Source: a virus
Taxonomy: Duplodnaviria > Heunggongvirae > Uroviricota > Caudoviricetes
Virus record (IMG/VR): IMGVR_UViG_2562617057_000007
DNA: 60,252 nucleotides
Strand: one strand, 5' to 3'
The notes under the pieces were generated by a model. The model had not been told where the DNA came from, ran no database searches, and saw only the letters and a list, made by a program, of their open reading frames with translations. Positions within the stretch are counted from its first letter, which is position 1. Every line of letters begins with the position of its first letter. Made by a program: the position numbers and the translations under genes. Of this stretch, positions 10,593 to 32,881 are shown piece after piece.

Positions 10593-12139
10593 ATAAAATC
10601 TTAGAGATAGAAAGCGAAGATAAGCATGTCTTTTTTTCACGTGAACAAATGATAAAAATAAAAAGTCTTTACATCCCTTCTAAAATACACTTGAGGTCAG
10701 CTGATGTTTTTGATGACAAGAATATATTTGCAGAGACTAATGATTGGGTGTTCCATTATTCAGGTAGCCAGTCACACATTAATTTCAAAACGGATGATTA
10801 CACCACAAAAATAATGAAGTATATATTATTCCATTATGCATCTTCAAAGTCTCCTGGGACTATATATCGTGTGCATCGTGCATGGATAGGCGCAATTGAA
10901 TATACTTCGAAACAAGGAATGTTTAACTTTCAATTGTTAAGATCTTTCCTTGAAAAGGAAAGTGTATTGCCCACACATTTTTTCTATATTATTTTTGGCC
11001 TTAAAATTCTTTGTATAGATGAATTTCCGGGTTTTACTTTAGATGACTACGAAGACCTTGAATTCATTCCTCGCCCTAATTCAAATGATTGGAGTGTATA
11101 TCAAAACATAGATAATATCTTTGAACCAGTTGAAAAGAACATGATCAGCAAAGGCCTTTTTGAAATGGCTACCGCCATATCACGAGGCAGAAATTACAAT
11201 CTGGTAGATCTTCGCAATGCCACTGTTTTGGGTCTATGTTACGTCACAGGTGGCCGTCCAGTTCAGTTAGCTAAATTGGCTGCTGGTGACTTTCGAATCG
11301 ATACTTGTAATACGACTACAGGGTTGGTTCGTTATAGCGTTCTTTTACCTTATGCTAAACAAAGGCACGTCACTACTGATCGGTTGATTCTGGCGCTCCC
11401 GCCGGAAATCGGTGTACTGGTTAACCATTATATAGATAAAGCAAGATTGTTGCCTACCGATAAGATGTTTGATATGGGGGCATCAGCAACTAAGTTTGTC
11501 TCTCAGTCTATTAGACAAACCATTCTAAACTTCAGCCCCCCTGATTATCAAGATGCCGTTGCTCGCGGAGAAGCCGCTCCCCCATCAATCACGCCAACTG
11601 ATTTACGCCACAACGTTGGTCACTCACTGGCTATGCAAGGAGTAAGTGCCGAAGAGATTGCTCACATTCTTGGTCATTCATCCTTAGTTGTAGCAAAGCA
11701 CTACATCTTGGCGACACCGGCCTTGGCCTTGATACGCGCTAAAGCACTAGGTTCTAACCCCGTGTGGCAAAACATGGTGGCTATGATGATGACAGGGAAG
11801 TTGGTCCCTTCAAAAGAATGGCAAGGTCGACGAGTAGTTGGCATGGTTGGTGATCGATTACACTATGAGATTGGTGGCTGTGCGAGAGGCGATGACGAAT
11901 GCCCTTTCTGTGAAGTCCGTTGCTGCTATGGTTGCTTATATTATCGCCCTTTCCTTGATGGCCAACACCAGGATGTACTAGATAGCATCTTGAAAGAAGT
12001 CGATGAGCTGATAGCTGTGTCAGATAGTGTAGGCAATGCTCACAATCCACTAATTTCTATCCACGAGACGACGCAAATAGAGATCAAGTCAGTGATTGCC
12101 CGTTGTCATTTGCATAACGTCAGAGGTTGTGGGAGATGA
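10589..12139 (+). CDS. tyrosine recombinase-like protein 2
   Basis: 516 aa; GGRPVQ, DLRHNVGHSLA, HILGHSS, KHYI; GTG start overlapping stop of upstream gene. Confidence 0.8.
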   Translation: MNKILEIESEDKHVFFSREQMIKIKSLYIPSKIHLRSADVFDDKNIFAETNDWVFHYSGSQSHINFKTDDYTTKIMKYILFHYASSKSPGTIYRVHRAWIGAIEYTSKQGMFNFQLLRSFLEKESVLPTHFFYIIFGLKILCIDEFPGFTLDDYEDLEFIPRPNSNDWSVYQNIDNIFEPVEKNMISKGLFEMATAISRGRNYNLVDLRNATVLGLCYVTGGRPVQLAKLAAGDFRIDTCNTTTGLVRYSVLLPYAKQRHVTTDRLILALPPEIGVLVNHYIDKARLLPTDKMFDMGASATKFVSQSIRQTILNFSPPDYQDAVARGEAAPPSITPTDLRHNVGHSLAMQGVSAEEIAHILGHSSLVVAKHYILATPALALIRAKALGSNPVWQNMVAMMMTGKLVPSKEWQGRRVVGMVGDRLHYEIGGCARGDDECPFCEVRCCYGCLYYRPFLDGQHQDVLDSILKEVDELIAVSDSVGNAHNPLISIHETTQIEIKSVIARCHLHNVRGCGR

Positions 12140-14498
12140 AAAAAATATAGAGAATTTTGACACTTTTATCGTAGAACAGAAAGCTTGGTTCGAAGAGAAT
12201 CTGGCAGCAGATTTTGCAGAATCATGGGATAGCCTTGTCTGGATATGTGGGAAAAAAGGTTCCGGCTGGTTACGAGGCAATGGTGTTAATGTATTGCGAT
12301 TTGATGAGATTAACCGGCTAAAAGGAATCGATGAACACTATACTGTATCCGATACTTATCAGTTGTTTATGAAAGCCATGCTGGTACTCGTCTATCGAGG
12401 CAGAAATCGCAGCATCTCCCCTGCGGTTGCTATTGCAACTCTGATTATTTTGAAACGCTGGTACTGTGCGCTGATTAAATTAACCGGGCAGACTCATCCC
12501 ATCTATCTGGCTACAGATGTTGTTCGTAGTGCAATGGATACTATGAGTGCAGCATCCAAGCCAGGTGATCCTAACATAGCCAACTACAAGGGGCGTTGCG
12601 TTAAGATTCAAAAATTAGTAAATCATCATGCTTTCACATTGGTAACTCTACATTATGTGTCCGACGAAAATTACACTAACCGGACCAATTTGACCCAGAA
12701 AGCCCGGGAAACAATAGCCCTTAAACACAAGGACAGGCTCGATGATACAGTCACTGATGGTGAAGATGCACTTATTACAATTCGAGGATTCCTCAATATC
12801 GTGTCACTTATCCAGCGTGTAGAAAACGGCACTGAAAAGATAGCGCTCAATTGCCTTCTGCTACTCATCATCACGGGTTTTCGGTCCATTGAAGCATTCA
12901 ATCTCAGGCTGGATGCGTTGGTCAAACGAAAGATAGATAACGCTGATATCAGCAGACGTCTACGCGATAAAGGGTTGCCGGATTATTTTCTTGGCATTCG
13001 CTATGTTGGTGTTAAGGGAGCTGGTGAGCGAACACATTGGGTCGAACCCTTAGCTGTTCCTTTAGTTGAAAACATATTCAAATCGGTTAAGTCACTAACA
13101 TGTGAGTTACGAAAGCATCTCATAAACTTACGTTTAAAAGGATTTGCTGATTATTTACCGGAGGCGATCAGTGATATTGCAGGTGAACTTGTTGAACTTG
13201 ATGATATTGTAGAACACATAGCCCAATCCTCATCAGAGCTTCGGGGGCGTGCGGGATTACGTGATAAAGCATCAAAAGCGTTAGCGAAACGAGGCTGTAT
13301 TCCGACTGAAGTCATTCTTTTTCCAGGTAATGAAAAAAGGAAATATTATTCAAAATCAGACCTTAGTCTTTACCTTAAAAATGAATTTGGTGATAGCAGC
13401 GCAAATACTCCCTGTACTCACTCATGGGTAGAAAACGGCAAAAGATTTGAGATTATGTATGAGGATTTATTGTTCCTTTACCCCAAAGGGTCTATGACGT
13501 TAAAGAGAGCATTGGGGCTAAAAGCAACACCTTTACCACTGAGTAATGCTGGCGTAAACAAGTTTCTCGGTAACGTTGACGGCTATGCTTCAGTCTTCAG
13601 TAAATACAGGCTACTCGAAGATGACGGTCGTCCTACCCAGCTTCGCACTCATATTCCTCGTCACAATATAAACACTTTTCTCGCTATTGCTGAAATTTCA
13701 GACCACTTACAAGCCATGTTGATGGGGCGTGTTGATATTACTCAAAATAAACATTACCAGCATCTGGCTCTTAAGGAGCGCCGAAAGGCTGCTTCTCTTA
13801 TTCCGTTAGTTCCGATCATACAGGAGCAGACAACACCAATTACTATTGACGCTGATACACCGCTCGATGTGGTAAAACAAAGTGGTATGATGATATTTAG
13901 CAGTACGAAGAATCTGGAAACCAACATAAAGGCGAACCTACATACCTTCGATAATCGTGACGATGTTGCAGGATTCATTGAGGCGTCGTTAGACGATGGA
14001 TTATTCGAAGACATAGCCGCTGCGTTCGAAGATATTAGTAAAAATGAAGGGCCATCGCAAGCGACTGAAATGGTGCATAGGCACGCGGTGCTGCATCCAT
14101 TGAAATTGGGCTCCTGCATGAGAGACGTAAACTTGTGGGGATGCCCTTATCGAATGAAGTGTCAGGCATTGAAGCCCTGTGAGCATTTCACGTTAACAGG
14201 TCGTATTGATGAATACTCCACAATTGAAGCCAAAGGTCGTGCATTAAACGAGGCTACGTTTGCTTTTGAACAGTATACCGCGACCTTTCCGGGTAACCAG
14301 CTAATGCAGGGCAATATCGAAGAAAATCTAGCACAACTAGATGCCTTAACTAAGCAATTACGCAGCCGCTCAAACTCGCTGGAAGCAATCCCCTCTCAGG
14401 TGGTCCTGTCCGGAGAGATAAAAGTAGAAGGTGAAATTCGTACTCTGGCTCAACTATTTGCCCTCGAGTACCAAAAAATCAAACAAGGAGAAGACTGA
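12096..14498 (+). CDS. tyrosine recombinase-like protein 3 (large, 800 aa)
   Basis: TGFRSIE, IPRHNINTFLA, MGRVDITQNKHYQH motifs; start uncertain (ATG 12096 or GTG 12129). Confidence 0.75.
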   Translation: MPVVICITSEVVGDEKNIENFDTFIVEQKAWFEENLAADFAESWDSLVWICGKKGSGWLRGNGVNVLRFDEINRLKGIDEHYTVSDTYQLFMKAMLVLVYRGRNRSISPAVAIATLIILKRWYCALIKLTGQTHPIYLATDVVRSAMDTMSAASKPGDPNIANYKGRCVKIQKLVNHHAFTLVTLHYVSDENYTNRTNLTQKARETIALKHKDRLDDTVTDGEDALITIRGFLNIVSLIQRVENGTEKIALNCLLLLIITGFRSIEAFNLRLDALVKRKIDNADISRRLRDKGLPDYFLGIRYVGVKGAGERTHWVEPLAVPLVENIFKSVKSLTCELRKHLINLRLKGFADYLPEAISDIAGELVELDDIVEHIAQSSSELRGRAGLRDKASKALAKRGCIPTEVILFPGNEKRKYYSKSDLSLYLKNEFGDSSANTPCTHSWVENGKRFEIMYEDLLFLYPKGSMTLKRALGLKATPLPLSNAGVNKFLGNVDGYASVFSKYRLLEDDGRPTQLRTHIPRHNINTFLAIAEISDHLQAMLMGRVDITQNKHYQHLALKERRKAASLIPLVPIIQEQTTPITIDADTPLDVVKQSGMMIFSSTKNLETNIKANLHTFDNRDDVAGFIEASLDDGLFEDIAAAFEDISKNEGPSQATEMVHRHAVLHPLKLGSCMRDVNLWGCPYRMKCQALKPCEHFTLTGRIDEYSTIEAKGRALNEATFAFEQYTATFPGNQLMQGNIEENLAQLDALTKQLRSRSNSLEAIPSQVVLSGEIKVEGEIRTLAQLFALEYQKIKQGED

Positions 14499-15482: not shown

Positions 15483-15869
15483 TGATTCATCTTCATTGGC
15501 CTCGAATGCTTAGATTGTCTAAGTATCTGTCATTGTTGTATACTTAGCAATCCTAAGTTAACAGCCTTGTTTTGTCATATGAATAGTCGAGTAACCAACC
15601 CTGAGTCGTACATATTTTCTGCAATCATCTTAATTGGCAAAGATAACTTCACCAGTAACGAAGTAGCAAAAATTCTTATCGAGCGATTTTCACTTCCGAA
15701 AAATTATTTAAAGGCAAAAGCTTTTGCTTATAACCAAATTCAATCCCTGGTTAGAAAAGGATTATTAAACAAAGTAAGAAAAACGTAACCGTCTCATTTA
15801 AACCGTCTTTCGCCTCCCTTTCCTGTTTCCGATACTAATGTCCATTTTCGCAGTAAAGGGACATTTAAG

Positions 15870-16511
15870 ATGAATGCACGAAAAGCGGTACTGGCAGACA
15901 ATCCGGAATTGATCCTGCGTGTGCTACAACTGAGATTTGACGAGTCACTGTCGTACCCGCGCATTTCTGCGCAGACCGGTATCAGCAAAACCGCCATTTT
16001 TTCTCTGGTGAGGCGATTTCACCAGGTATTCACTGACTGGCCTCTTTCCGGGGAATATTCCTGCGTGCAACTGGCCCGGGCTTTGTTCCCGGGGCGATAC
16101 CCTTCAGCCCCGACAGTAACTCAGACTGTGAAAACAGAGAAAAACCGCCGGAACCGATTTTCACCGGAGTTTAAATGGAGACTTGTTCAGCAAACTCTTT
16201 TACCCGGTGCCTGTGTCGCACAAATAGCTCGTGAGAACGGAATCAACGATAACCTGCTCTTTAACTGGCGGCATCTCTGGCGTAACGGCGGCCTGCAGCC
16301 GACCGGCGAACATGAAACATCGCTACTTCCCGTGACGTTAACTCCGGAGCCGGATAATAAAATCCCGGCACCAGTGCAGATACCTGAACAGATGCCCGAC
16401 AGTCTGTGCTGTGAGCTGGTTCTGCCGGCCGGAACTCTCAGGCTGAAAGGTGAACTGACACCGGCGTTATTACAGACACTTATCCGCGAAATGAAAGGGA
16501 GCAGCCACTGA
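15870..16511 (+). CDS. IS66-family accessory protein OrfA (copy 1)
   Basis: 213 aa, identical to 20728..21369. Confidence 0.8.
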   Translation: MNARKAVLADNPELILRVLQLRFDESLSYPRISAQTGISKTAIFSLVRRFHQVFTDWPLSGEYSCVQLARALFPGRYPSAPTVTQTVKTEKNRRNRFSPEFKWRLVQQTLLPGACVAQIARENGINDNLLFNWRHLWRNGGLQPTGEHETSLLPVTLTPEPDNKIPAPVQIPEQMPDSLCCELVLPAGTLRLKGELTPALLQTLIREMKGSSH

Positions 16512-16612
16512 TGTCAGCGCCAGTGATATAAGACGGTAATTCGCCATTTGGATTGTCCGCTCCACCCAACATGTTGTTTCCTTAAGGTTCTCACACCAGA
16601 AAGGACATCAAC

Positions 16613-18582
<1,970 letters not shown>

Positions 18583-18644
18583 CGAAAGTATTTAGCGGGC
18601 ATGAAAATGGCAAATAACGGTCAAACATCGTGGCGTTGACACTG

Positions 18645-18992
18645 ATGATATCTCTCCCTGCCGGTTCGCGTATCTGGCTGGTTGCCGGTATCACCGACAT
18701 GCGAAATGGTTTTAACGGCCTGGCATCAAAAGTTCAGAACGTCCTGAAGGATGACCCGTTCTCCGGGCATCTGTTCATCTTCCGCGGACGCCGGGGTGAC
18801 CAGATAAAAGTGTTGTGGGCTGACAGTGACGGACTGTGCCTCTTCACCAAACGCCTGGAGCGGGGCCGCTTCGTCTGGCCGGTTACCCGTGACGGCAAGG
18901 TGCACCTTACTCCGGCTCAGTTATCTATGCTTCTTGAAGGTATCAACTGGAAGCACCCGAAACGAACGGAACGCGCTGGCATCCGCATATAA
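18645..18992 (+). CDS. IS66-family OrfB (copy 1)
   Basis: MISLPAGSRIWLVAG..., identical to 21369..21716; separated from orfA by the IS21 insertion. Confidence 0.8.
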   Translation: MISLPAGSRIWLVAGITDMRNGFNGLASKVQNVLKDDPFSGHLFIFRGRRGDQIKVLWADSDGLCLFTKRLERGRFVWPVTRDGKVHLTPAQLSMLLEGINWKHPKRTERAGIRI

Positions 18993-19011
18993 CCCGTTGT
19001 AAAGTGAGGAT

Positions 19012-20583
19012 ATGGACACCTCACTTGCTCATGAGAATGCCCGCCTGCGGGCACTGTTGCAGACGCAACAGGACACCATCCGCCAGATGGCGAAATACAA
19101 CCGCCTGCTCTCACAGCGGGTGGCGGCTTATGCTTCCGAAATCAACCGGCTGAAGGCGCTGGTTGCGAAACTGCAGCGCATGCAGTTCGGTAAAAGCTCA
19201 GAAAAACTTCGCGCTAAAACCGAACGACAGATACAGGAAGCACAGGAGCGAATCAGCGCACTTCAGGAAGAAATGGCGGAAACGCTGGGTGAGCAATATG
19301 ACCCGGTACTGCCATCCGCCCTGCGCCAGTCTTCAGCCCGTAAACCGTTACCGACCTCACTTCCCCGTGAAACCCGGGTCATCCGGCCGGAAGAGGAATG
19401 CTGTCCGGCCTGTGGTGGTGACCTCAGTCCTCTGGGGTGTGATGTGTCAGAGCAACTGGAGCTTATCAGCAGCGCTTTTAAGGTTATCGAAACACAACGT
19501 CCGAAACTGGCCTGTTGCCGGTGCGACCATATCGTGCAGGCACCAGTACCTTCAAAACCCATTGCACGCAGTTATGCCGGAGCGGGGCTTCTGGCTCATA
19601 TCGTCACCGGGAAGTATGCAGACCATCTGCCGTTATACCGCCAGTCAGAAATATACCGTCGTCAGGGCGTGGAACTGAGCCGCGCCACGCTGGGGCGCTG
19701 GACCGGTGCCGTTGCTGAACTGCTGGAGCCGCTGTATGACGTGCTGCGCCAGTATGTACTGATGCCCGGTAAAGTCCATGCGGATGATATCCCCGTTCCG
19801 GTCCAGGAGCCGGGCAGTGGTAAAACAAGAACTGCCCGGCTGTGGGTCTATGTCCGTGATGACCGTAACGCCGGTTCACAGATGCCCCCGGCGGTCTGGT
19901 TCGCGTACAGCCCGGACCGGAAAGGTATCCATCCACAAAATCACCTGGCCGGTTACAGCGGTGTGCTTCAGGCCGATGCTTACGGTGGTTACCGGGTGTT
20001 ATACGAATCCGGCAGAATAACGGAAGCCGCGTGTATGGCTCATGCCCGGAGAAAAATCCACGATGTGCATGCAAGAGTGCCCACCGACATCACCACGGAA
20101 GCCCTGCAGCGTATCGGTGAACTGTATGCCATCGAGGCAGAGGTCCGGGGCTGTTCAGCAGAACAGCGTCTGGCGGCAAGAAAAGCCAGAGCCGCGCCAC
20201 TGATGCAGTCACTGTATGACTGGATACAGCAACAGATGAAAACACTGTCGCGTCACTCGGATACGGCAAAAGCGTTCGCATACCTGCTGAAACAGTGGGA
20301 TGCACTGAACGTGTACTGCAGTAATGGCTGGGTGGAAATCGACAACAACATTGCAGAGAACGCCTTACGGGGAGTGGCCGTAGGCCGGAAAAACTGGCTC
20401 TTCGCGGGTTCTGACAGCGGTGGTGAACATGCTGCGGTGTTGTACTCGCTGATCGGCACATGCCGTCTGAACAATGTGGAGCCAGAAAAGTGGCTGCGTT
20501 ACGTCATTGAACATATCCAGGACTGGCCGGCAAACCGGGTACGCGATCTGTTGCCCTGGAAAGTTGATCTGAGCTCTCAGTAA
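19012..20583 (+). CDS. IS66-family transposase OrfC (copy 1)
   Basis: 523 aa, N-terminal leucine-zipper-like region, Cys cluster CPACGG...CCRCDH, identical to copy 2. Confidence 0.85.
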
Positions 20584-20727
20584 ATATCAATACGGTTCTG
20601 GCGAGCCGCTTACGAAAAACAGGCGTGTATCAATATTTATACGTAACCGTCTCATTTAAACCGTCTTTCGCCTCCCTTTCCTGTTTCCGATACTAATGTC
20701 CATTTTCGCAGTAAAGGGACATTTAAG

Positions 20728-21369
20728 ATGAATGCACGAAAAGCGGTACTGGCAGACAATCCGGAATTGATCCTGCGTGTGCTACAACTGAGATTTGACG
20801 AGTCACTGTCGTACCCGCGCATTTCTGCGCAGACCGGTATCAGCAAAACCGCCATTTTTTCTCTGGTGAGGCGATTTCACCAGGTATTCACTGACTGGCC
20901 TCTTTCCGGGGAATATTCCTGCGTGCAACTGGCCCGGGCTTTGTTCCCGGGGCGATACCCTTCAGCCCCGACAGTAACTCAGACTGTGAAAACAGAGAAA
21001 AACCGCCGGAACCGATTTTCACCGGAGTTTAAATGGAGACTTGTTCAGCAAACTCTTTTACCCGGTGCCTGTGTCGCACAAATAGCTCGTGAGAACGGAA
21101 TCAACGATAACCTGCTCTTTAACTGGCGGCATCTCTGGCGTAACGGCGGCCTGCAGCCGACCGGCGAACATGAAACATCGCTACTTCCCGTGACGTTAAC
21201 TCCGGAGCCGGATAATAAAATCCCGGCACCAGTGCAGATACCTGAACAGATGCCCGACAGTCTGTGCTGTGAGCTGGTTCTGCCGGCCGGAACTCTCAGG
21301 CTGAAAGGTGAACTGACACCGGCGTTATTACAGACACTTATCCGCGAAATGAAAGGGAGCAGCCACTGA
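20728..21369 (+). CDS. IS66-family accessory protein OrfA (copy 2)
   Basis: 213 aa; stop overlaps orfB start (TGATG). Confidence 0.8.
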   Translation: MNARKAVLADNPELILRVLQLRFDESLSYPRISAQTGISKTAIFSLVRRFHQVFTDWPLSGEYSCVQLARALFPGRYPSAPTVTQTVKTEKNRRNRFSPEFKWRLVQQTLLPGACVAQIARENGINDNLLFNWRHLWRNGGLQPTGEHETSLLPVTLTPEPDNKIPAPVQIPEQMPDSLCCELVLPAGTLRLKGELTPALLQTLIREMKGSSH

Positions 21370-21716
21370 TGATATCTCTCCCTGCCGGTTCGCGTATCTG
21401 GCTGGTTGCCGGTATCACCGACATGCGAAATGGTTTTAACGGCCTGGCATCAAAAGTTCAGAACGTCCTGAAGGATGACCCGTTCTCCGGGCATCTGTTC
21501 ATCTTCCGCGGACGCCGGGGTGACCAGATAAAAGTGTTGTGGGCTGACAGTGACGGACTGTGCCTCTTCACCAAACGCCTGGAGCGGGGCCGCTTCGTCT
21601 GGCCGGTTACCCGTGACGGCAAGGTGCACCTTACTCCGGCTCAGTTATCTATGCTTCTTGAAGGTATCAACTGGAAGCACCCGAAACGAACGGAACGCGC
21701 TGGCATCCGCATATAA
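21369..21716 (+). CDS. IS66-family OrfB (copy 2)
   Basis: 115 aa. Confidence 0.8.
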   Translation: MISLPAGSRIWLVAGITDMRNGFNGLASKVQNVLKDDPFSGHLFIFRGRRGDQIKVLWADSDGLCLFTKRLERGRFVWPVTRDGKVHLTPAQLSMLLEGINWKHPKRTERAGIRI

Positions 21717-21735
21717 CCCGTTGTAAAGTGAGGAT

Positions 21736-23307
21736 ATGGACACCTCACTTGCTCATGAGAATGCCCGCCTGCGGGCACTGTTGCAGACGCAACAGGACAC
21801 CATCCGCCAGATGGCGAAATACAACCGCCTGCTCTCACAGCGGGTGGCGGCTTATGCTTCCGAAATCAACCGGCTGAAGGCGCTGGTTGCGAAACTGCAG
21901 CGCATGCAGTTCGGTAAAAGCTCAGAAAAACTTCGCGCTAAAACCGAACGACAGATACAGGAAGCACAGGAGCGAATCAGCGCACTTCAGGAAGAAATGG
22001 CGGAAACGCTGGGTGAGCAATATGACCCGGTACTGCCATCCGCCCTGCGCCAGTCTTCAGCCCGTAAACCGTTACCGACCTCACTTCCCCGTGAAACCCG
22101 GGTCATCCGGCCGGAAGAGGAATGCTGTCCGGCCTGTGGTGGTGACCTCAGTCCTCTGGGGTGTGATGTGTCAGAGCAACTGGAGCTTATCAGCAGCGCT
22201 TTTAAGGTTATCGAAACACAACGTCCGAAACTGGCCTGTTGCCGGTGCGACCATATCGTGCAGGCACCAGTACCTTCAAAACCCATTGCACGCAGTTATG
22301 CCGGAGCGGGGCTTCTGGCTCATATCGTCACCGGGAAGTATGCAGACCATCTGCCGTTATACCGCCAGTCAGAAATATACCGTCGTCAGGGCGTGGAACT
22401 GAGCCGCGCCACGCTGGGGCGCTGGACCGGTGCCGTTGCTGAACTGCTGGAGCCGCTGTATGACGTGCTGCGCCAGTATGTACTGATGCCCGGTAAAGTC
22501 CATGCGGATGATATCCCCGTTCCGGTCCAGGAGCCGGGCAGTGGTAAAACAAGAACTGCCCGGCTGTGGGTCTATGTCCGTGATGACCGTAACGCCGGTT
22601 CACAGATGCCCCCGGCGGTCTGGTTCGCGTACAGCCCGGACCGGAAAGGTATCCATCCACAAAATCACCTGGCCGGTTACAGCGGTGTGCTTCAGGCCGA
22701 TGCTTACGGTGGTTACCGGGTGTTATACGAATCCGGCAGAATAACGGAAGCCGCGTGTATGGCTCATGCCCGGAGAAAAATCCACGATGTGCATGCAAGA
22801 GTGCCCACCGACATCACCACGGAAGCCCTGCAGCGTATCGGTGAACTGTATGCCATCGAGGCAGAGGTCCGGGGCTGTTCAGCAGAACAGCGTCTGGCGG
22901 CAAGAAAAGCCAGAGCCGCGCCACTGATGCAGTCACTGTATGACTGGATACAGCAACAGATGAAAACACTGTCGCGTCACTCGGATACGGCAAAAGCGTT
23001 CGCATACCTGCTGAAACAGTGGGATGCACTGAACGTGTACTGCAGTAATGGCTGGGTGGAAATCGACAACAACATTGCAGAGAACGCCTTACGGGGAGTG
23101 GCCGTAGGCCGGAAAAACTGGCTCTTCGCGGGTTCTGACAGCGGTGGTGAACATGCTGCGGTGTTGTACTCGCTGATCGGCACATGCCGTCTGAACAATG
23201 TGGAGCCAGAAAAGTGGCTGCGTTACGTCATTGAACATATCCAGGACTGGCCGGCAAACCGGGTACGCGATCTGTTGCCCTGGAAAGTTGATCTGAGCTC
23301 TCAGTAA
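21736..23307 (+). CDS. IS66-family transposase OrfC (copy 2)
   Basis: 523 aa. Confidence 0.85.
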
Positions 23308-23713
23308 ATATCAATACGGTTCTGGCGAGCCGCTTACATTTATACTCAGTCACATCAGAATTTAATATCGCAACAGAATGCGTGGAATTAATTGAGGCAA
23401 CCCCAAAGTCTTCCTGTCAACTTGTTTCAAGTGCTACCAACCATGAACACAGAAATGTAAATATCCAAATAAAGTCTCTTATTGAAAAATACAGCAGTGA
23501 GTTGGCGAAAGTATCAGGAGCAAAGGAGATTTATGAAGAATTGATAGTTGCTGTGCCGAGCAGGGAAAATGAATTCAGGAAGCTTTCTCTTGAACAAGAG
23601 AAAAAACACATCAAGATAAATGAAAAAATAAATACATTAATTGGAATTATTAATCAATCTCTTGCAGTAACGCAATGAATTTTAACAAGTATTTGAAGAT
23701 AAATGGAGTCATG

Positions 23714-23986: not shown

Positions 23987-24742
23987 CTACATATCAGCCA
24001 ACAGCATCCCGGCTATCCCGTCCAGGCGTTTTTTTACCTTTTCCCAACCCGGCATAACCTGCCCCATCAGCCGGTAAAATTTCTCGCTGTGATTGTGCTC
24101 AGCGACATGGCATAACTCATGGAGCAATACATAGTCGATGCATTCCGAGGAAGCCTTTACCAGCCACGGGTTAAGTGTCAGGCAGCCTTTTGCAGAACAG
24201 TTTCCCCATTGCGTCTGCATGGCTCGTAAACGTATCGGAGGACGCTCACTTACCCATAAGGTTTGCGGTATCAGTAAATCCAGTCTGCGTTGAAACACAT
24301 CTCTGGCGCGTTCCCGATACCACTCAACCAGCACCGCCTTAACGCGTTCAGCGGATTTGTGTCTGACGGTGACTTCCAGACGGCCCCGCAACATTTTCAC
24401 TTTTTGCGTAACAGCAGCATCTTCTGTTACTTTCAACTGGTATTGTTTGCCAAGATAGTAATGGCTTTCGCCACTCACATACTGACGCGGAACGATATGC
24501 GTTTGTTGCTCCCTGAAGTCGCGTAGTTGCTGGTATATCCAGCGCCCTCGCTTTTTCAGCGCAGATATCACATCCAGCTCCGGCGTTCCGGGTGGTACAG
24601 ATGCGACTACCCGGCAGTCCGGATGAACCTTGATAAGTATCCTGCCTTTAACAACCTGCCGTGGTACACACTGAACCACGATGGTTTCATCACCATAAAC
24701 AAAACGTACAGCATTCATAGATAGTGACTTTTTCTCACTCAT
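23987..24742 (-). CDS. M48/DUF45-type zinc metallopeptidase (YgjP-like)
   Basis: 251 aa with HELCH zinc-binding motif; start overlaps hsdR stop by 4 nt. Confidence 0.75.
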   Translation of the reverse strand: MSEKKSLSMNAVRFVYGDETIVVQCVPRQVVKGRILIKVHPDCRVVASVPPGTPELDVISALKKRGRWIYQQLRDFREQQTHIVPRQYVSGESHYYLGKQYQLKVTEDAAVTQKVKMLRGRLEVTVRHKSAERVKAVLVEWYRERARDVFQRRLDLLIPQTLWVSERPPIRLRAMQTQWGNCSAKGCLTLNPWLVKASSECIDYVLLHELCHVAEHNHSEKFYRLMGQVMPGWEKVKKRLDGIAGMLLADM

Positions 24743-27700
24743 GATTTCATCAAACCAACGCGCAGGATCTGTATGATGGTTTCAACGATACGGTTTACCT
24801 GGTTCATTCCAGCACCGATCTCTCGACAGGCAGTAAACAGTCGCGGCAACAGGCTTGTCTTAACGGCTTTCTCGATATCCTGAGGATTGAGGGAATTTTC
24901 CGCAACCGCTTTGACAATAATAGTGTCCACTTCGAAAGCCAGCTTCGTCCATTTATGCTGAACCTGATCATCGTTTACCGCGAAAACCTCAGGTAGCTCT
25001 TTTTTAAATACTCCGTAGTATGCCTGCGCATGTTTGTTTACGGCCAGCGCATCCGGGATGTCGCTGAGTTTGCGGGCTTCCACCTGCGCCTCAAACTCGC
25101 GGAAAAGGAGATATTGCTTCAGCGGATGGTCGAACAGTTTTTCAGTCTCTTCAATAACCATACGCAGGAGTTTTGAGAATGCCTCCTGAGCATAGGGATC
25201 GTCGCACAGTTCATGTTCAATCATCTTCGTGACGCGGGTTTTAATGATGTCGGTCTCATTGCGGGTTTTGTTGTTATCCCACTCTTCCGGCTTTTCAGTT
25301 TTACCCATCTTGCCCACTTCATATACGCCATCCGGTTCACGAACCGCGACACCAGTAACATGCTTATTCAGCAGTTTTTTCACCTGTTCAGCGTAGTCGT
25401 CATAATTGACCTGCTCACCACTGACCTGCATCGCCCACTGGCGCAGGCTGGACATCTGTTTTACGGTTTCTTTATAGATATTTCGGTCTTGTTCCGTAAA
25501 GCTCTTGTCGGTGAAGAAGGTGGCGGACTGCAGCGCTACTTTCAGGCATCCGGCAAAGGCCGTTAACACCTCGAAGAAATCATCACGGGTTTTCTGATGG
25601 ATATCGACCATCTCTCCGTCACGTTCTTCCATTTTAGGCACCAGAACTGCACGTAACTGCTCAGTATCATTCTTGTTTTTAACACCGGCAAATATGGCCC
25701 ACAACTGGTTATACAGATGCGGCAGACGCTTGTATTCAGAGCTCATGGCGCTGTACAGCCCATCAATATCCTTGATGTCATATCCTCCCTGAGTTCGGGA
25801 GGCAAGATCCTGATATTTACCGATAGTCGTGTCCAGTTCAGCCAAAATGCCGCGATAATCAATCAGCAGACCAAACTTTTTCAGTGGATGCAGTCGGTTC
25901 ACCCGGGCAATCGCCTGGATAAGATTATGGGACTTAAGAGGTTTGTCGATATACAGCACGGTATTCTTCGGTTCATCAAACCCGGTGAGCAATTTATCAA
26001 CGACGATCAACAATTTAAGCTTATCATCGGTATCGAAGCGGCTAATGATATTACGGGTATACACAGACTCATCCTGCGTGCCGACATTATCCTTCCACCA
26101 TTTCGTCACTTCCGGCAGTTTGCTTTCATCCACCTCGGTGTTCCCTTCCCGGGTATCCGGCGGGCTGATAACGACAGCTGACTCAAACAACCCGGCTTCA
26201 TCAAGATACTTTTTATATTTGATGGCGGAAATCTTGCTGTCGCAGGCAAGTTGGCCTTTCAGCCCCTCATCAATATTCTTCGAGAAGTGCATGGCGATAT
26301 CTAATGCAATCAGCCGGATGCGGTCATCTGCACTATAAACCTCACCCTTACGGGCATATTTACGCTTAAGGTCGGCTTTTTGCGCTTCGCTTAACCCATC
26401 GGTAATACGATCAAACCATGCATCTATTGCCCGGTCGTTTACCTCAAGATCAGGAATACGTTCCTCGTAAAGCAGAGGCGTCACCGCCTGATCTTCTACC
26501 GCTCGCTGCATGGTATAAGCGTGGACAATCGGCCCGAATTTATTGGTGGTCTTATCTTCTTTCAGCAAAGGTGTACCGGTAAATGCCACAAAAGCAGCAT
26601 TCGGCAGGGCCAGTTTCATACGCACATGGTTTTCGCCACCCTGGCTGCGGTGTCCTTCATCAATCAGTACGATGATGTCGGGGCTGGTATTGACGCATTC
26701 AGGAAGTTTTGTCGCTGAATTAAATTTCTGGATCAGGGTGAAGATAATACGTTCTTTACCGGAGCCAATCTGTTCCGCCAACATCTGCCCGGATGTCGCC
26801 ATTGCATTGGCTTTGTCTTTTTTCCCGACCAACTCGCCGCCGGAAGCAAAGGTACCGCTGAGCTGTTCTTCAAGATCGATACGGTCCGTCACCACCACAA
26901 TACGACACTGCTTCAGGCTGTCATGAAGAATCAGCGCCTTACTGAGGAACACCATGGTATAAGATTTACCGGAACCCGTGGTATGCCAGATGACACCACC
27001 TTCCCTGCCGCCGTCTGATCTACGGGTACTGATGCGTTCCAGTAGTCTTTTAATGCCGAACACCTGCTGATAGCGGGCGACAATCTTCCCGGTCTTTTTA
27101 TCAAACAGGGTGAAAAAGCGCGTCATCTCCAGCAGACGTTCCGGCGAAAGCAGACTGATGAGCAGTTTGTCCTGTCCACTAACGGCCAGTTCACCCCCGG
27201 CGATTAACTGCTGATACCAGTTGAGATCGGCTGACGGACGATGATCAAATAACGCATGAATCTGTTCAGTCGATAACGGATGGTTGCGCAGAGCATACAT
27301 CTGCGCATCCGTAATATCTTCTTCCCGCCATGCCGCCCAGAATTTCATTGGCGTATGGCAGGTACCGTAGCGACCGTCATGCCCGTTAATCGAAAGCAAT
27401 AGCTGGCTATAGGCAAACAGCTGCGGGATTTCATCGTTGAACTGGTTGCGGATACTCTGAGATATCCCTTCGTCAATGGTTGGCCCTTTCTTACCGTGAC
27501 CTGCCGGGCTTTTCGCTTCAATGACTGCCAGCGGGATACCATTCACAAAGCAGACAATATCCGGTCTGCGGGTTTCGACACCGCCTGACCGCAATACCGT
27601 AAATTCTTCGGTAAAGTGAAACTGGTTATTTTCCGGATGTTCCCAGTCAATCAGCGCAATGGTGGGGTTCACCTTCTTGCCATCGACAAACTCCGTGACG

Positions 27701-28026
27701 GCGATACCGTAGAGCAGATGGTTATACATCCGCTCATTGGCTTTCAGCAGTCCTTCATTCAGCGCCGGAGAACAGACCTGCGATATCAGGTTATCCAGCG
27801 CCTTTTCCGATAACTGGCAGATTTTGCCACCCGCCATAAAGGAACGCTTCGAAAGCTCTTCACGCAGAACCGGACGCAGCACCACCTCATCCTGTTTATA
27901 GCCCCGGTAATCCATAATCTGTTTCGGGGATAAAAACGTCCAGCCGAGGCTGGTCAGTAACGTCAGTGCCGGAATTTTGGCGCTGTATTCTTCCTGGAAT
28001 TTTGGCGTGTACGTCTGGTTCATCAT
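24739..28026 (-). CDS. hsdR: Type I restriction enzyme R subunit
   Basis: 1095 aa; Walker A TGSGKS, DEGHR (DEAH-box) motif, size typical of HsdR. Confidence 0.9.
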   Translation of the reverse strand: MMNQTYTPKFQEEYSAKIPALTLLTSLGWTFLSPKQIMDYRGYKQDEVVLRPVLREELSKRSFMAGGKICQLSEKALDNLISQVCSPALNEGLLKANERMYNHLLYGIAVTEFVDGKKVNPTIALIDWEHPENNQFHFTEEFTVLRSGGVETRRPDIVCFVNGIPLAVIEAKSPAGHGKKGPTIDEGISQSIRNQFNDEIPQLFAYSQLLLSINGHDGRYGTCHTPMKFWAAWREEDITDAQMYALRNHPLSTEQIHALFDHRPSADLNWYQQLIAGGELAVSGQDKLLISLLSPERLLEMTRFFTLFDKKTGKIVARYQQVFGIKRLLERISTRRSDGGREGGVIWHTTGSGKSYTMVFLSKALILHDSLKQCRIVVVTDRIDLEEQLSGTFASGGELVGKKDKANAMATSGQMLAEQIGSGKERIIFTLIQKFNSATKLPECVNTSPDIIVLIDEGHRSQGGENHVRMKLALPNAAFVAFTGTPLLKEDKTTNKFGPIVHAYTMQRAVEDQAVTPLLYEERIPDLEVNDRAIDAWFDRITDGLSEAQKADLKRKYARKGEVYSADDRIRLIALDIAMHFSKNIDEGLKGQLACDSKISAIKYKKYLDEAGLFESAVVISPPDTREGNTEVDESKLPEVTKWWKDNVGTQDESVYTRNIISRFDTDDKLKLLIVVDKLLTGFDEPKNTVLYIDKPLKSHNLIQAIARVNRLHPLKKFGLLIDYRGILAELDTTIGKYQDLASRTQGGYDIKDIDGLYSAMSSEYKRLPHLYNQLWAIFAGVKNKNDTEQLRAVLVPKMEERDGEMVDIHQKTRDDFFEVLTAFAGCLKVALQSATFFTDKSFTEQDRNIYKETVKQMSSLRQWAMQVSGEQVNYDDYAEQVKKLLNKHVTGVAVREPDGVYEVGKMGKTEKPEEWDNNKTRNETDIIKTRVTKMIEHELCDDPYAQEAFSKLLRMVIEETEKLFDHPLKQYLLFREFEAQVEARKLSDIPDALAVNKHAQAYYGVFKKELPEVFAVNDDQVQHKWTKLAFEVDTIIVKAVAENSLNPQDIEKAVKTSLLPRLFTACREIGAGMNQVNRIVETIIQILRVGLMKS

Positions 28027-28075
28027 TAATCCTTTTCTTTCTGGCGCTACTCGCTACTGGTCACATGAAGATTCA

Positions 28076-28759
28076 TCAATGCAGACAGCACTTCTTAAAT
28101 TTTTTACCGCTGCCACACGGACACGGGTCATTTCGCCCGGGCATGTTTTCTGCCCTCTTCACTGGAACAGGCCGGGATGATGCCTCTGACATTCTCACTG
28201 ACAACCAGTACTGATAAAGTGCCAGTGCAGCAGGCTGAATAAGGGAAATACTTTTCTCAAACTGCTCTCCGGTCATTTTCTCAAGTACAGGAAAATTCTT
28301 CTCCACGCCATGAAGAGCGATCACTTCCAGAGAAGGCCGTAACTCACCGGGAAGACCAGACCAGTCATCCAGTGACTTTCCTTTCATATAACCAAAACAC
28401 CACTCTTCCACAATGGTATATTTTTCCCCCTTTACCTCACGCTCATTGAAAATCGGCTCAAACAGTTCAGGGGCGTCATAAAGGCAACCAGCGATATCGT
28501 TCATATGCTGAAAACACAGACTGACAAAACGCTCCATCTCTCTCTCAGATGACCATTTCGGATGATAATCGCCTCTTCCCCAAATAGCACTCAGCCAGAT
28601 ATTGGGTGAAACCATATTTGGACCTGATAAAATCGCCGTCAGCAATCCATCCAGCTCAGAGAAACAGAGTACAGAATCATCCATTCCATACTTCATTAAT
28701 ATTTCTTCCAGCCAGTCGATTTCCCGGTCAGTCAGTGGACCGCTTTTCGTCAGTTTCAT
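28076..28759 (-). CDS. YecA-like (UPF0149) protein with C-terminal SEC-C zinc motif
   Basis: 227 aa; collinear similarity to E. coli YecA as recalled; terminal [24 protein letters not shown] motif; start overlaps hsdS stop (ATGA). Confidence 0.8.
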
Positions 28760-29940
28760 ACGGCAACCGCCTCATCCACTTTCACCCGACGTTTCCCGGT
28801 CAGCAGTTGCTGCATCAAGGCTTTCTTCTCGTTTTTCAGGCAGGCGAGTTTTTTCTCAAGTGTGGAGATTTCGGTGTCGGCAGCGGACAGAACGGCGGCA
28901 ATTTTTTGTTGTTCTTCAAAATTGGGCACTGATAATTTTAATGTCTTTATATCATCACTATTAATTGATTCAAATGTGCTACCTTGTGATAGGTAACACC
29001 ATTTTGGTTCAAACCAAAGAAACCATTGATAAAGAAATGATTGACTCATTTTTCTCTTGGATTTTATAGCCGATATACCACGCCCTATACATGCTTTATG
29101 TTGAGAAAGTGCAACAGTACCTACAGGTGCCCTGACACTTAGAAGAATATCTCCAGGAGTACATTCTTTCGTAATGTCAGACGTATAAACTCTGGGACAT
29201 GAAACTCGGCACTTTATATCGGCATTACCCTGTATTAATGGCAAACCTAAGCCATTATCGTTGTAGGCTTCGGATTTAGGTGATGATCCCATAATAATAT
29301 GTGCTACTTCAGACAAAGTGCACGTACACCACTCCCCACTAAACCTCACCCCATTCTCATCCAGCAACCGTTTCTTCCCGGTAAGCAATTGCTGAATCAG
29401 GGCTTTTTTCTGCTGCTGGCTGTTGGCGAGAAGCTTTTCCGTCACCGAAATCGCCTTATTCCAGGTTGACAGGATTTGGGATATTTTCTTTTGTTCAGCA
29501 ACAGGCGGGGTAAGCACAAATTGATTATCAATGTCTTTTTTTTGAACATGTAATAATGTTGATTTGAAACCATGAGCCTGCGCTTCAATTTTTTGAGTTA
29601 TATGCAATAAAGCTAAATACAGCCAGTGTTCATGAACATTTTCATTTGCAAATACCTTGTAGATATGCTGATTCAAAACACCTTTTGGCCCATTCCAAAT
29701 GAAAGGACCGAAGGATACACCTTTTGTACCTGCCCAAGAAAATAGTAACTGCCCTGGTTCAACTAACCATTTATCCTGAGGAACACCTGAAAAATAGTTA
29801 TAATTACCGCTTCCATTTAGATTTTGAATTCGAATGATAGGAAGACCTTTTGTATCCCACTCATGTGGCTTAAAACTATTACCATTTTGTAACTTACAGA
29901 TATCTGACACTTGGAGAAGCATCCACCCCTTAGGCACCAT
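28756..29940 (-). CDS. hsdS: Type I restriction-modification specificity subunit
   Basis: 394 aa with two variable halves separated by repeated conserved segment [14 protein letters not shown] / [14 protein letters not shown]. Confidence 0.85.
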
Positions 29941-31453
29941 AACCCAACTCCTTCAGATAACCCGCCATCTCCGTTTCCAGTTTCGCCAGTTCCACCTTCA
30001 ATTGCTCACGCTCAGAACGCACGGCCAGCAAATCAATCTCGTCTTCTTCTTCAAAAGTATCGACATAGCGCGGAATATTGAGGTTGTAATCGTTATCCTG
30101 AATCTCCTTCAGGCTGGCGAGATAGGCATATTTCTCGACGTTATCGCCTTCACGATAGGTGTTAACGATCTTCTGGATATTTTCTGCGCTGAGCTGGTTC
30201 TGGTTTTTGCCCGCCTTATATTCACGGCTGGCATCGATAAACAGCACCTTGTCATCCACTTTCTGCTTCTTAAAAATCAGAATCGCGGCCGGAATCCCCG
30301 TACCGTAGAACAGTTTTTCAGGCAAACCAATCACCGCATCCAGCAGATTTTCATCAATCAGTTTCTGGCGAATCTTACCTTCGCTGGAGCCACGGAACAG
30401 CACACCGTGTGGCACGACCACCCCCATACGACCCGTTCCCGGTTTCAGGGTTTCTATCATATGTGAGATAAAGGCGTAATCGCCTTTGGTCTTCGGCGGT
30501 ACACCACGACGGAAGCGACCAAACTTATCGTTCTCGGCCTCATCATGGCCCCACTTATCCAGACTAAACGGCGGGTTAGCGGTCACGATATCAAACAGCA
30601 TCAGATCGCCATTTTTATCGAGCAGCTTCGGGTTACGAATGGTATCGCCCCACTCGATTTTATGGTTGTCCTCGCCATGCAGGAACATGTTCATTTTCGC
30701 CAGCGACCACGTGGAGCCAATCGCTTCCTGACCGAACAAAGCATAGTTACGGCTGTCATGCCCGGATACAATCTTACGCCCGCACTTCATTAACAACGAA
30801 CCAGAACCACAGGCCGGATCGCAGATGGTATCACCCGGTTGTGGATCAAGTAGTTCAGCAATCAGGTCCGAGACTTCCGGCGGGGTATAAAATTCCCCGG
30901 CTTTCTGCCCACCGCTGGCGGCAAAGTTTTTAATCAGATATTCGTAGGCATTACCGATAACGTCCAGCGTACCTACACGGCTTGGCTTCAGGTTAAGATC
31001 TTCACCGGCAAAGTCTTCCAGCAGCTGACGCAGGATGGTGTTCTTCTGTTTTTCTTCACCCAAGCGGTCAGTGTTAAACGAAATATCCTGAAAGACGCTT
31101 TTCCCGGCATCTTTCAGTTTGGTGCCGTTGGCTTCTTCAATAGCGTGTAGTGCCTGATCAATACGCTCGCCGTTTCCCGGCTCATAGCGACGCTCGTAAA
31201 GAGTATAAAAGCTGGCACTTTTCGGCAGCACAAAACGCTCGTTAGCCATCATCGCTTCAATCAGCTCCGGCGCATCGCCATACTGTTCTTTGTATTCGTC
31301 ATAGTGATCCTGCCAGACATCCGAAATGTACTTGAGGAACAGCATGGTAAGGATAAAGTCTTTGTAAGTATCAGCACTGATGGTACCACGGAACGTATCG
31401 CACGCGGCCCACAGGGCTTTGTTGATCGTGTCCTGACTGATTTTGTCGTTCAT
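29930..31453 (-). CDS. hsdM: Type I restriction-modification N6-adenine methyltransferase subunit
   Basis: 507 aa; motif I DPACGSGSLL and motif IV NPPF (VTANPPFSLDKW). Confidence 0.9.
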   Translation of the reverse strand: MNDKISQDTINKALWAACDTFRGTISADTYKDFILTMLFLKYISDVWQDHYDEYKEQYGDAPELIEAMMANERFVLPKSASFYTLYERRYEPGNGERIDQALHAIEEANGTKLKDAGKSVFQDISFNTDRLGEEKQKNTILRQLLEDFAGEDLNLKPSRVGTLDVIGNAYEYLIKNFAASGGQKAGEFYTPPEVSDLIAELLDPQPGDTICDPACGSGSLLMKCGRKIVSGHDSRNYALFGQEAIGSTWSLAKMNMFLHGEDNHKIEWGDTIRNPKLLDKNGDLMLFDIVTANPPFSLDKWGHDEAENDKFGRFRRGVPPKTKGDYAFISHMIETLKPGTGRMGVVVPHGVLFRGSSEGKIRQKLIDENLLDAVIGLPEKLFYGTGIPAAILIFKKQKVDDKVLFIDASREYKAGKNQNQLSAENIQKIVNTYREGDNVEKYAYLASLKEIQDNDYNLNIPRYVDTFEEEDEIDLLAVRSEREQLKVELAKLETEMAGYLKELGYGA

Positions 31454-31936
31454 GAATCATCCTGGTATGAAGAAAACCATACGATGTGTTGTATTCATCG
31501 TAGAAAATTTGGTGCAGATAATACCTTAAGGTGCGTCTTCAGGCACGTCAAAGCCGCATCGTTCGAAGTGGATTTTTCCTGAGGGGAATAGGACTCTTTT
31601 TTCCCGTAATGTGGTGGACTGGTTGATGAAACAAACACTAACGCGCGGCTTGGTACTGGATTGACCTGCTCCCCGTGATATCAATACACCCTACCCCAGT
31701 GACGCTAAAACGCATTTTACAACCTTTTATTACATTGGGAATGGTCCAAGATTAAGCTGTCAGGAAATACTCATAAGAGGTGCATTTCCTGTTAGTTCAT
31801 GAAGTACTCTTGAAGTGATTTCATCTTTCTATTAAAAATATCTTTCAAAGCAATGAAATATGTACCATATGGTTTATGAACTGAACTCTTACACAACATA
31901 AGTTAAATAACCTTCTTTTTTAACAAATTTAACAAG

Positions 31937-32404: not shown

Positions 32405-32881
32405 ATGCAGACACTAAATTCCCAACGTAAAGCTTTCCTGGATATGGTGGCATGGTCAGAAGGAACGGATAACGGGCGACAACCGACACGTAATCACGGT
32501 TATGACGTTATCGTCGGAGGTGAGTTGTTCACTGATTACTCCGATCACCCTCGCAAACTTGTCACGCTAAACCCGAAGCTTAAATCAACAGCCGCAGGCC
32601 GGTATCAGCTTCTTTCACGCTGGTGGGATGCCTACCGCAAGCAGCTTGGCCTGAAAGATTTTTCGCCAGAAAGTCAGGACGCTGTGGCGCTGCAGCAGAT
32701 TAAAGAGCGTGGCGCTTTACCGATGATTGACCGTGGCGATATTCGTCAGGCAATCGACCGTTGCAGCAATATCTGGGCGTCGTTACCTGGTGCAGGTTAC
32801 GGTCAGTATGAACATAAAATCGGTGACCTGATTTCCAGGTTTAAAGATGCTGGTGGGGTGGTAAATGAAGCTGACTTATAA
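32405..32881 (+). CDS. endolysin, lambda R-like lytic transglycosylase
   Basis: 158 aa, near-collinear match to remembered lambda R (NSQRKAFLDMVAWSEGTDNGRQPTRNHGYDVIVGGELFTDYSDHPRK...). Confidence 0.9.
   Translation: MQTLNSQRKAFLDMVAWSEGTDNGRQPTRNHGYDVIVGGELFTDYSDHPRKLVTLNPKLKSTAAGRYQLLSRWWDAYRKQLGLKDFSPESQDAVALQQIKERGALPMIDRGDIRQAIDRCSNIWASLPGAGYGQYEHKIGDLISRFKDAGGVVNEADL

Follow-up and report, generated by a model that had tools for sequence, protein, structure and literature searches.

The 60,252-nucleotide stretch of viral DNA analysed here (IMG/VR record IMGVR_UViG_2562617057_000007; Caudoviricetes), referred to throughout as the window, contains an intact Type I restriction-modification (R-M) cassette with the layout hsdM-hsdS-[slot]-hsdR-M48. 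Throughout this HsdR family the M48 metallopeptidase gene at the end of the cassette is conserved as a partner of hsdR, and the YecA-like gene occupying the slot between hsdS and hsdR is better described as facultative embedded cargo, like prrC, tgvAB and darTG. Taken jointly, the structural and evolutionary picture of a Type I cassette with a conserved M48 partner and an optional embedded YecA cargo is probable. The cassette is read from the minus strand and is made up of the following features, the genes being taken from the listing of open reading frames (ORFs) and the spacer from the sequence itself:

31454-31800, minus strand: 5′ flank of the cassette, 100% identical, along with the cassette, in other Escherichia coli genomes
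29930-31453, minus strand: hsdM, Type I m6A DNA methyltransferase subunit (507 aa)
28756-29940, minus strand: hsdS, specificity subunit (394 aa), which has two target-recognition domains and conserved spacers that are repeated
28076-28759, minus strand: YecA-like gene, a YecA/AscA paralogue with a UPF0149 domain and a SecA-like metal-binding domain (227 aa)
28027-28075, minus strand: spacer of 49 nt before hsdR, with an AAGGA ribosome-binding site
24739-28026, minus strand: hsdR, restriction (nuclease and translocase) subunit (1095 aa)
23987-24742, minus strand: M48 gene, encoding a YgjP-like (DUF45) M48/minigluzincin zinc metallopeptidase (251 aa)

A preliminary description of this DNA, made from the sequence alone, had placed the five genes in this order on one strand, and the ORF listing bears it out. 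The junctions are likewise as it had given them: hsdM and hsdS overlap by 11 nt, hsdS and the YecA-like gene are joined through an ATGA overlap, a 49-nt gap precedes hsdR, and hsdR and the M48 gene share a second ATGA. Strong family matches and intact catalytic motifs support the Type I R-M reading and all five gene calls, and the PGAP annotation of identical DNA in E. coli genomes consists of the same five genes. The 49-nt spacer is also found in other loci in which the YecA-like gene is alone in the slot (L100 and L104; loci of this analysis carry the prefix L). One weak sigma-70-like site is present at 31741-31714, and promoter-like sites in the scanned region did not exceed the shuffled-sequence expectation.

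HsdM matches N6_Mtase (PF02384, E=3e-107), HsdM_N (PF12161, E=2e-22) and TIGR00497 (281 bits against a cut-off of 243), and its translation contains the NPPF and DPACGSGS motifs. HsdS has two Methylase_S stretches (Pfam), with both copies of the KKALxQQLLTGKxR repeat present in the translation, in keeping with the two-target-domain layout described earlier. HsdR matches HSDR_N, SWI2_SNF2/ResIII and a T1R_D3-like domain in Pfam, TIGR00348 (463 bits against a cut-off of 285) and, over its full length, the PADLOC REase_I profile PDLC03041 (1366 bits); a D...EAK nuclease motif, a Walker A GSGKS and a DEGH motif are all present in its translation. In Type I systems the M2S assembly methylates a bipartite target, and the R2M2S assembly translocates along and cleaves unmodified DNA. 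Among cassette variants HsdM is 93-99% identical, whereas HsdS identity is just 34-49% in most of them, as expected where specificities differ. Membership of Type IC is not indicated, as only the HsdR motor region 297-518 aligns to EcoR124I HsdR (E=2e-33), and the Pfam scan of HsdR gave no match to EcoR124_C (PF12008). Type ID (StySBLI/EcoR9I/KpnAI) is a possible assignment.

The M48 protein matches the YgjP-like family PF01863 (E=1e-57; 196 bits against a cut-off of 26), with weak matches to WLM and SprT-like families, and a HELCH...EHNH motif is present in its translation. Its predicted fold is that of a minigluzincin/M48 peptidase, close to the SprT and Wss1 proteases, in agreement with Foldseek; the N-terminal approximately 160 residues gave no structural match, and no helix-turn-helix (HTH) or sensor domain was found in the Pfam scan. 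In all 73 full-length hsdR-M48 pairs scored, hsdR is immediately followed by an M48 gene of the same orientation, with a gap of at most 5 nt in 57 pairs and of 6-150 nt in the other 16. This order holds in all evaluable relatives at 67-77% and at 37-40% HsdR identity, and also in three cassettes from Yersinia, Klebsiella and Salmonella that were reached via M48 homologues. M48 identity tracks HsdR identity (Spearman 0.76), and the gene is present whatever the slot contains, empty slots included. The coupling to hsdR that underlies the earlier proposal is supported for the peptidase; a function together with the restriction complex is a putative one.

The slot between hsdS and hsdR is variable. 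A metagenome scan with HsdR yielded 79 loci, which were scored with the five window proteins, and the survey of slot contents covered those cassettes whose HsdR is 95-100% identical and for which the hsdS end and the hsdR start could both be seen:

YecA-like gene alone (approximately 735 nt): 26 loci
YecA-like gene together with a 594-620-aa protein with a weak cold-shock domain (approximately 2560 nt): 15 loci
cold-shock-domain protein alone (2314 nt): 1 locus
empty (24-28 nt): 8 loci, plus the species-representative locus L059

Read directly, the empty junctions consist of the hsdS stop codon, approximately 24 nt with an AAGGA of their own, and then the hsdR ATG, and L059 is alike. The nine cassettes devoid of the YecA-like gene have HsdM 95-98% and HsdR 96-98% identical to those of the window, so the same enzyme genes exist without it. 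Relatives with an HsdR identity of 67-77% or 37-40% have either no gene at all in the slot or unrelated ones, the majority of them recognised defence genes. The cargo in these distant relatives comprises SMODS/AGS-C with SLATT (CBASS-like); DUF4357 (PDC-S14) with MoxR and vWA; GmrSD with Abi_2; TIR-STAND with a Schlafen/AlbA_2 protein; RhuM, which is also found in the Yersinia and Klebsiella relatives; OloA/OloB (Olokun) with SMODS and Abi_2; ApeA-HEPN (PDC-S58); DUF3800; and HEC-08. In the Salmonella relative the slot holds a 72-aa ORF. The tight coupling of the YecA-like gene had been taken earlier to suggest that its product works with the restriction complex. A role as a working part of that complex is not supported, given the nine near-identical cassettes without the gene, the unrelated defence genes in the slot of relatives, and the listing of the protein by PADLOC as a single-gene candidate, PDC-S12.

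The protein that accompanies the YecA-like gene in the six-gene form of the cassette lies between that gene and hsdR (L007, 3801-5585; L009, 7629-9491; L113, 4503-6362; and approximately 20 other loci). Its cold-shock domain is N-terminal and weakly matched (E=1e-4), PADLOC gave no match to it, and in L117 it occurs without the YecA-like gene.

The YecA-like protein has the domain composition of YecA, matching UPF0149 (PF03695, E=8e-30), SEC-C (PF02810, E=2e-10) and NCBIfam PRK10396 (NF007704; 355 bits against a cut-off of 149), as well as PADLOC PDC-S12 over profile positions 2-218 of 218 (E=7e-99). The metal-binding motif CxCxSx6C(C/H) is present in its translation. Collinearity with chromosomal YecA, including the terminal zinc motif, had been noted from the sequence and is confirmed by an end-to-end alignment with E. 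coli YecA (57% identity). Two groups are seen among database homologues: the first shares 74% identity or more with the window protein, and the second, after a gap, comprises the housekeeping YecAs of Enterobacterales at no more than 59%. In a scan using one genome per species, nine loci with the paralogue (76-85% identity) were found in Franconibacter, on a Klebsiella michiganensis plasmid, and in Intestinirhabdus, Buttiauxella, Enterobacter, an uncultured Enterobacterales metagenome-assembled genome, Pseudescherichia, Morganella and Citrobacter, in each case immediately downstream of hsdM and hsdS. Of the 71 loci with housekeeping yecA in the same scan, none had R-M genes except two with the island inserted a few kilobases away. 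Orthology with housekeeping yecA, which lies next to tRNA genes and tyrP, is not indicated: the window protein belongs to a separate clade at no more than 59% identity, and the paralogue and a housekeeping yecA coexist in one genome, 7 kb apart (L091).

Agreement between the consensus of the paralogue and that of housekeeping YecA extends to 18 of 20 positions of the metal-binding domain, 110 of 185 positions of the UPF0149 domain and 5 of 22 linker positions; 74 positions are conserved in both clades, and just one is fixed differently between them. The paralogue is about equally far (51-59% identity) from all housekeeping YecAs, which are themselves 53-81% identical to one another, and a recent capture of a neighbouring yecA was rejected for this reason. 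Several genomes have an R-M island integrated 3-7 kb from housekeeping yecA (L091, 3248-14527; L059; L060/L017; L117; and L134). At the reference E. coli locus, tRNA-Gly and tRNA-Leu lie directly upstream of yecA.

In Morganella and Providencia (L018, 5265-11174; L002-L004, 7700-10723), a YecA-like protein that is 76-78% identical follows the hsdS of another Type I system, the HsdM of which is just 42% identical to that of the window, and a GmrSD/HEC-06 type IV restriction gene comes after it; the Providencia copies are remnants disrupted by insertion sequences (ISs). In every context, this system included, the YecA-like gene is joined by ATGA to the end of hsdS. Distant UPF0149/SEC-C proteins on Burkholderiales plasmids (34-36% identity) had no hsdS neighbour, and the phage records contained only housekeeping-like YecA (54-56% identity), positioned at record ends.

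Purifying selection is shown on hsdM, the YecA-like gene, hsdR and the M48 gene. The ratio of nonsynonymous to synonymous divergence (dN/dS) is 0.02-0.03 for HsdM, 0.03-0.06 for HsdR, 0.04-0.10 for M48 and 0.07-0.21 for the YecA-like protein, the constraint on which is 3-5 times more relaxed than that on HsdM and HsdR. Within a single locus (L005-L149), neighbouring genes show a several-fold spread in their synonymous divergence (dS) from the window; in L100 dS is 0 for the YecA-like gene, 0.53 for hsdM, 0.39 for hsdR and 1.09 for the M48 gene. Such sharp differences within one locus show that the modules of the cassette recombine, and point to frequent recombination at its gene boundaries.

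The architecture has a close counterpart in the RRDM island of enteropathogenic E. coli E2348/69, with the order RptR-HsdM-HsdS-DarT-DarG-HsdR-M48 (NAR 2025, PMC12255303). Its authors noted that the M48 zinc metallopeptidase is a conserved neighbour, regarded the site between hsdS and hsdR as a hotspot of recombination, and reported a 15-fold induction of hsdM on infection; the M48 protein was left out of their experiments. By gene order, hsdM, hsdS, cargo, hsdR and M48 are common to both loci, and both are flanked by ISs, which here include IS66 and an IS21-family element. The two differ in their cargo, which is DarTG2 in the RRDM island and the YecA paralogue in the window, and in their first gene, RptR (approximately 79 aa), which precedes hsdM in the RRDM island. 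The 5′ flank of the window cassette has only ORFs of 31-52 aa, with no RptR-like gene and no minus-strand ORF longer than 52 aa within the 350 nt upstream of hsdM.

The Yersinia, Klebsiella and Salmonella relatives of the cassette (L173-L178, approximately 1000-2660) contain an extra, half-size hsdS-like gene of 192-198 aa. In the Yersinia and Klebsiella relatives an 88-aa ORF precedes this gene, upstream of hsdM, whereas the Salmonella relative (L177) has only a 55-aa ORF; the small ORF upstream of hsdM in these relatives might be a candidate RptR-type regulator.

PADLOC candidates of the PDC type were identified among genes lying within BREX, DISARM and Type I R-M systems ('guilt-by-embedding'), and the list was curated to exclude likely non-defence functions (Payne et al. 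2024, bioRxiv 10.1101/2024.01.29.577857); the strings PDC-S12 and YecA were not found in the supplements of that work. The YecA-like gene resembles PDC-S12 in its full-length profile match and in being embedded between the hsdS and hsdR of a Type I R-M system. The profile, however, also matches housekeeping YecA, which is the allele used in a 2026 preprint on H-NS in which PDC-S12 is equated with YecA/AscA and plasmid-borne YecA protected against T5- and T1-like phages. In published work, YecA/AscA is a Sec-pathway chaperone whose metal-binding domain mediates its binding to SecB and ribosomes. The paralogue shares with it length, domain order, 57% identity and a nearly identical SecA-like metal-binding domain, but differs in belonging to a separate clade (no more than 59% identity), in its locus and in being carried on mobile elements. 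SEC-C motifs occur also in the validated antiphage protein Rugutis and in PADLOC E2-type profiles.

A position between hsdS and hsdR is shared by the YecA-like gene with PrrC (EcoprrI), TgvAB (Vibrio VPI-2) and RloA-H (Campylobacter). These proteins have no sequence or domain relation to the YecA-like protein, PrrC being an anticodon nuclease, and TgvAB and RloF being GmrSD/DUF262 proteins. PrrC, the classical example of such embedding, is found almost exclusively in Type I R-M systems (Payne et al. 2024). It is kept latent through the R-M enzyme, a dependence of which no example is known for the YecA-like protein. TgvAB, embedded in the Type I R-M system of VPI-2, acts independently of HsdR. 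The M48 protein differs from the minigluzincins (proabylysin, projannalysin and selecase) and from the SprT/Wss1 crosslink proteases in its extra N-terminal domain of approximately 160 residues and, unlike them, is genetically tied to a restriction subunit. A literature search found nothing linking DUF45, COG1451 or YgjP with Type I restriction. The association of M48 with Type I systems was reportedly noted by Makarova and colleagues in 2011. The feature as a whole is largely known, and its novelty is low, because the YecA-like gene is already catalogued as PDC-S12 and the M-S-[cargo]-R-M48 layout has been published.

Each of the mechanisms proposed for the two accessory proteins, taken alone, is tentative and more likely wrong than right. 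The M48 protein would act on the restriction subunit or on the assembled complex, either in proteolytic control or in the removal of unassembled or stalled HsdR, as a built-in counterpart of restriction alleviation by ClpXP. HsdR or the assembled enzyme is its most likely target because the two genes are translationally coupled and diverge in step, because the M48 gene occurs whatever the slot contains and also where no RptR-like regulator is encoded, and because its predicted catalytic domain resembles the SprT and Wss1 proteases. A Type I enzyme that has stalled, or that binds unmodified host DNA, has to be neutralised. ClpXP does so for EcoKI; no established means is known for other families.

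The YecA-like protein, in this picture, is not a subunit of the enzyme. Since its metal-binding domain is nearly unchanged, it has most likely retained docking on ribosomes or SecB through this domain, and its UPF0149 chaperone domain would act on clients. As cargo of the slot, it would probably add a second layer of protection that is independent of restriction, as TgvAB and DarTG do. A more specific pair of roles is unlikely: the YecA paralogue would be an immune protein that docks on ribosomes or SecB and then blocks the export of phage receptors or senses phage takeover, and the M48 protein would be a dedicated HsdR protease providing this large HsdR family with ClpXP-independent alleviation by removing stalled or unassembled subunits from DNA, as SprT and Wss1 do.

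Several points weigh against the picture of a conserved partner and an optional defence cargo. Neither the metagenomic nor the genomic samples are independent in phylogenetic terms, and the linkage owes much to the spread of one cassette. The empty-slot cassettes may not be functional. The constant ATGA fusion of the YecA-like gene to hsdS might point to a functional link with the methyltransferase core instead of independence. The anti-phage allele of the 2026 preprint is housekeeping YecA, and its authors allow for altered receptor availability as an explanation. The literature search found no paper on the function of an R-M-linked M48 protein or of the embedded YecA paralogue, and the substrate of the M48 protein is a guess, given the lack of a structural match for its N-terminal approximately 160 residues.

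The fusion to hsdS is at the centre of one alternative, in which the YecA-like protein would be a dedicated chaperone, assembly factor or regulator of the restriction complex, holding HsdS/HsdM or HsdR until they assemble, so that both accessory proteins would be working parts. The ATGA coupling is maintained whichever gene comes next (hsdR, the gene for the cold-shock-domain protein or GmrSD), and even with a different HsdM family; in addition, the gene is under purifying selection, and housekeeping YecA/AscA is a promiscuous chaperone. This alternative therefore keeps some weight, yet it is improbable in view of the nine cassettes with near-identical HsdM and HsdR and a clean hsdS-RBS-hsdR junction (RBS, ribosome-binding site), of the distant members of the same HsdR family, which never have the YecA-like gene and contain either unrelated defence cargo or an empty slot, and of the mosaic pattern of dS, which shows the YecA-like gene recombining separately from the enzyme genes (0 against 0.53 for hsdM and 1.09 for M48 in L100).

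Just as little probability is assigned to the YecA-like protein being a passenger with no role in defence or R-M, either a captured Sec chaperone that aids the element or envelope biogenesis, or a mere hitch-hiker. The insertion of islands near housekeeping yecA in several genomes would offer a route of capture, and both the essentially unchanged metal-binding domain and the single position fixed differently between the clades fit such an origin. Against this, the paralogue clade is about equally distant from all housekeeping YecAs and is not derived from a neighbour; its dN/dS of 0.07-0.21 is maintained over many genera and hundreds of plasmids; the slot in relatives is filled almost exclusively with defence genes; the PADLOC list was curated against likely non-defence functions; and phage plating was altered by expression of YecA, albeit of the housekeeping allele, in the 2026 preprint. 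A signalling role of the ImmA/IrrE/CapP type for the M48 protein, cleaving a repressor such as RptR or activating an embedded effector on sensing phage infection or DNA damage instead of acting on HsdR, would suit its conservation next to RptR-Type I R-M islands with infection-induced hsdM (PMC12255303), but is similarly unlikely, as the M48 gene of the window is intact and under strong purifying selection with no RptR-like gene upstream of hsdM, is present regardless of slot content, and encodes no detected HTH or sensor domain.

The cassette with an M48 partner and optional YecA cargo is widely distributed. Of 5426 complete E. coli genomes, 371 have matches that cover the full 8.1 kb to 80% or more; hsdR together with the M48 gene is present in 541 of the genomes searched and the full-length YecA-like gene in 418, abutting hsdS in every full-length match listed. 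The frequency of the cassette in complete E. coli genomes is about 8-10%. Housekeeping yecA matches the YecA-like gene query in E. coli genomes only over the last 76 nt. The YecA-like protein is found at a minimum of 78% identity on approximately 348 plasmids; Klebsiella accounts for 342 of the plasmids matched overall, and the majority are conjugative. The preliminary description had named uniqueness of the linkage to this locus as an outcome that would refute its proposal; the cassette is instead widespread, and the linkage recurs. The difference between the two E. coli counts (541 and 418) was also considered as a sign of cassettes without the YecA-like gene, and was dropped because all three loci inspected had the gene.

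The E. coli islands carrying the cassette contain integrases, GmrSD-like genes, Hhe and a primer-independent PolB, and are pipolin-like elements. Type I R-M and PDC-S12 have been published as being among the frequent defence cargo of pipolins, which agrees with the content of these islands. In the window, the cassette has a tandem IS66/IS21 block on one side and a probable phage late region on the other. The block, at 15783-23360, consists of two tandem copies of an IS66-family element (tnpB-tnpC, with a start-to-start spacing of 2724 nt) and abuts the M48 end of the cassette; the first copy is interrupted by an IS21-family element (istA, 16613-17785; istB, 17782-18582). Further out, at 9222-14498, lies a low-GC (36-44%) module of three genes, two overlapping tyrosine-recombinase genes (456 and 516 aa) and an 800-aa ORF with no Pfam match, and it looks like a mobile element of the recombinase-trio type. 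Directly past the cassette, a long run of plus-strand ORFs at 32042-54000 is probably a prophage late region; the 158-aa product of 32405-32881 within it, which had no Pfam match at E≤0.001, may be akin to the lambda R endolysin.

As a mobile defence cassette that is common on chromosomal islands of E. coli and on conjugative plasmids of Klebsiella, it probably influences how plasmids and phages move among clinical Enterobacterales. The residual interest lies in the mechanisms of its two accessory proteins. One question is why a whole HsdR family is always accompanied by a zinc metallopeptidase, which is possibly a means of self-protection for Type I systems outside ClpXP control; the other is the role of a Sec-chaperone paralogue inside a restriction operon. 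Both lend themselves to direct testing, since cassettes that have the YecA-like gene and cassettes that lack it both occur in nature. If the proposed role is true, the YecA paralogue would be a layer of defence built from a duplicated Sec chaperone.

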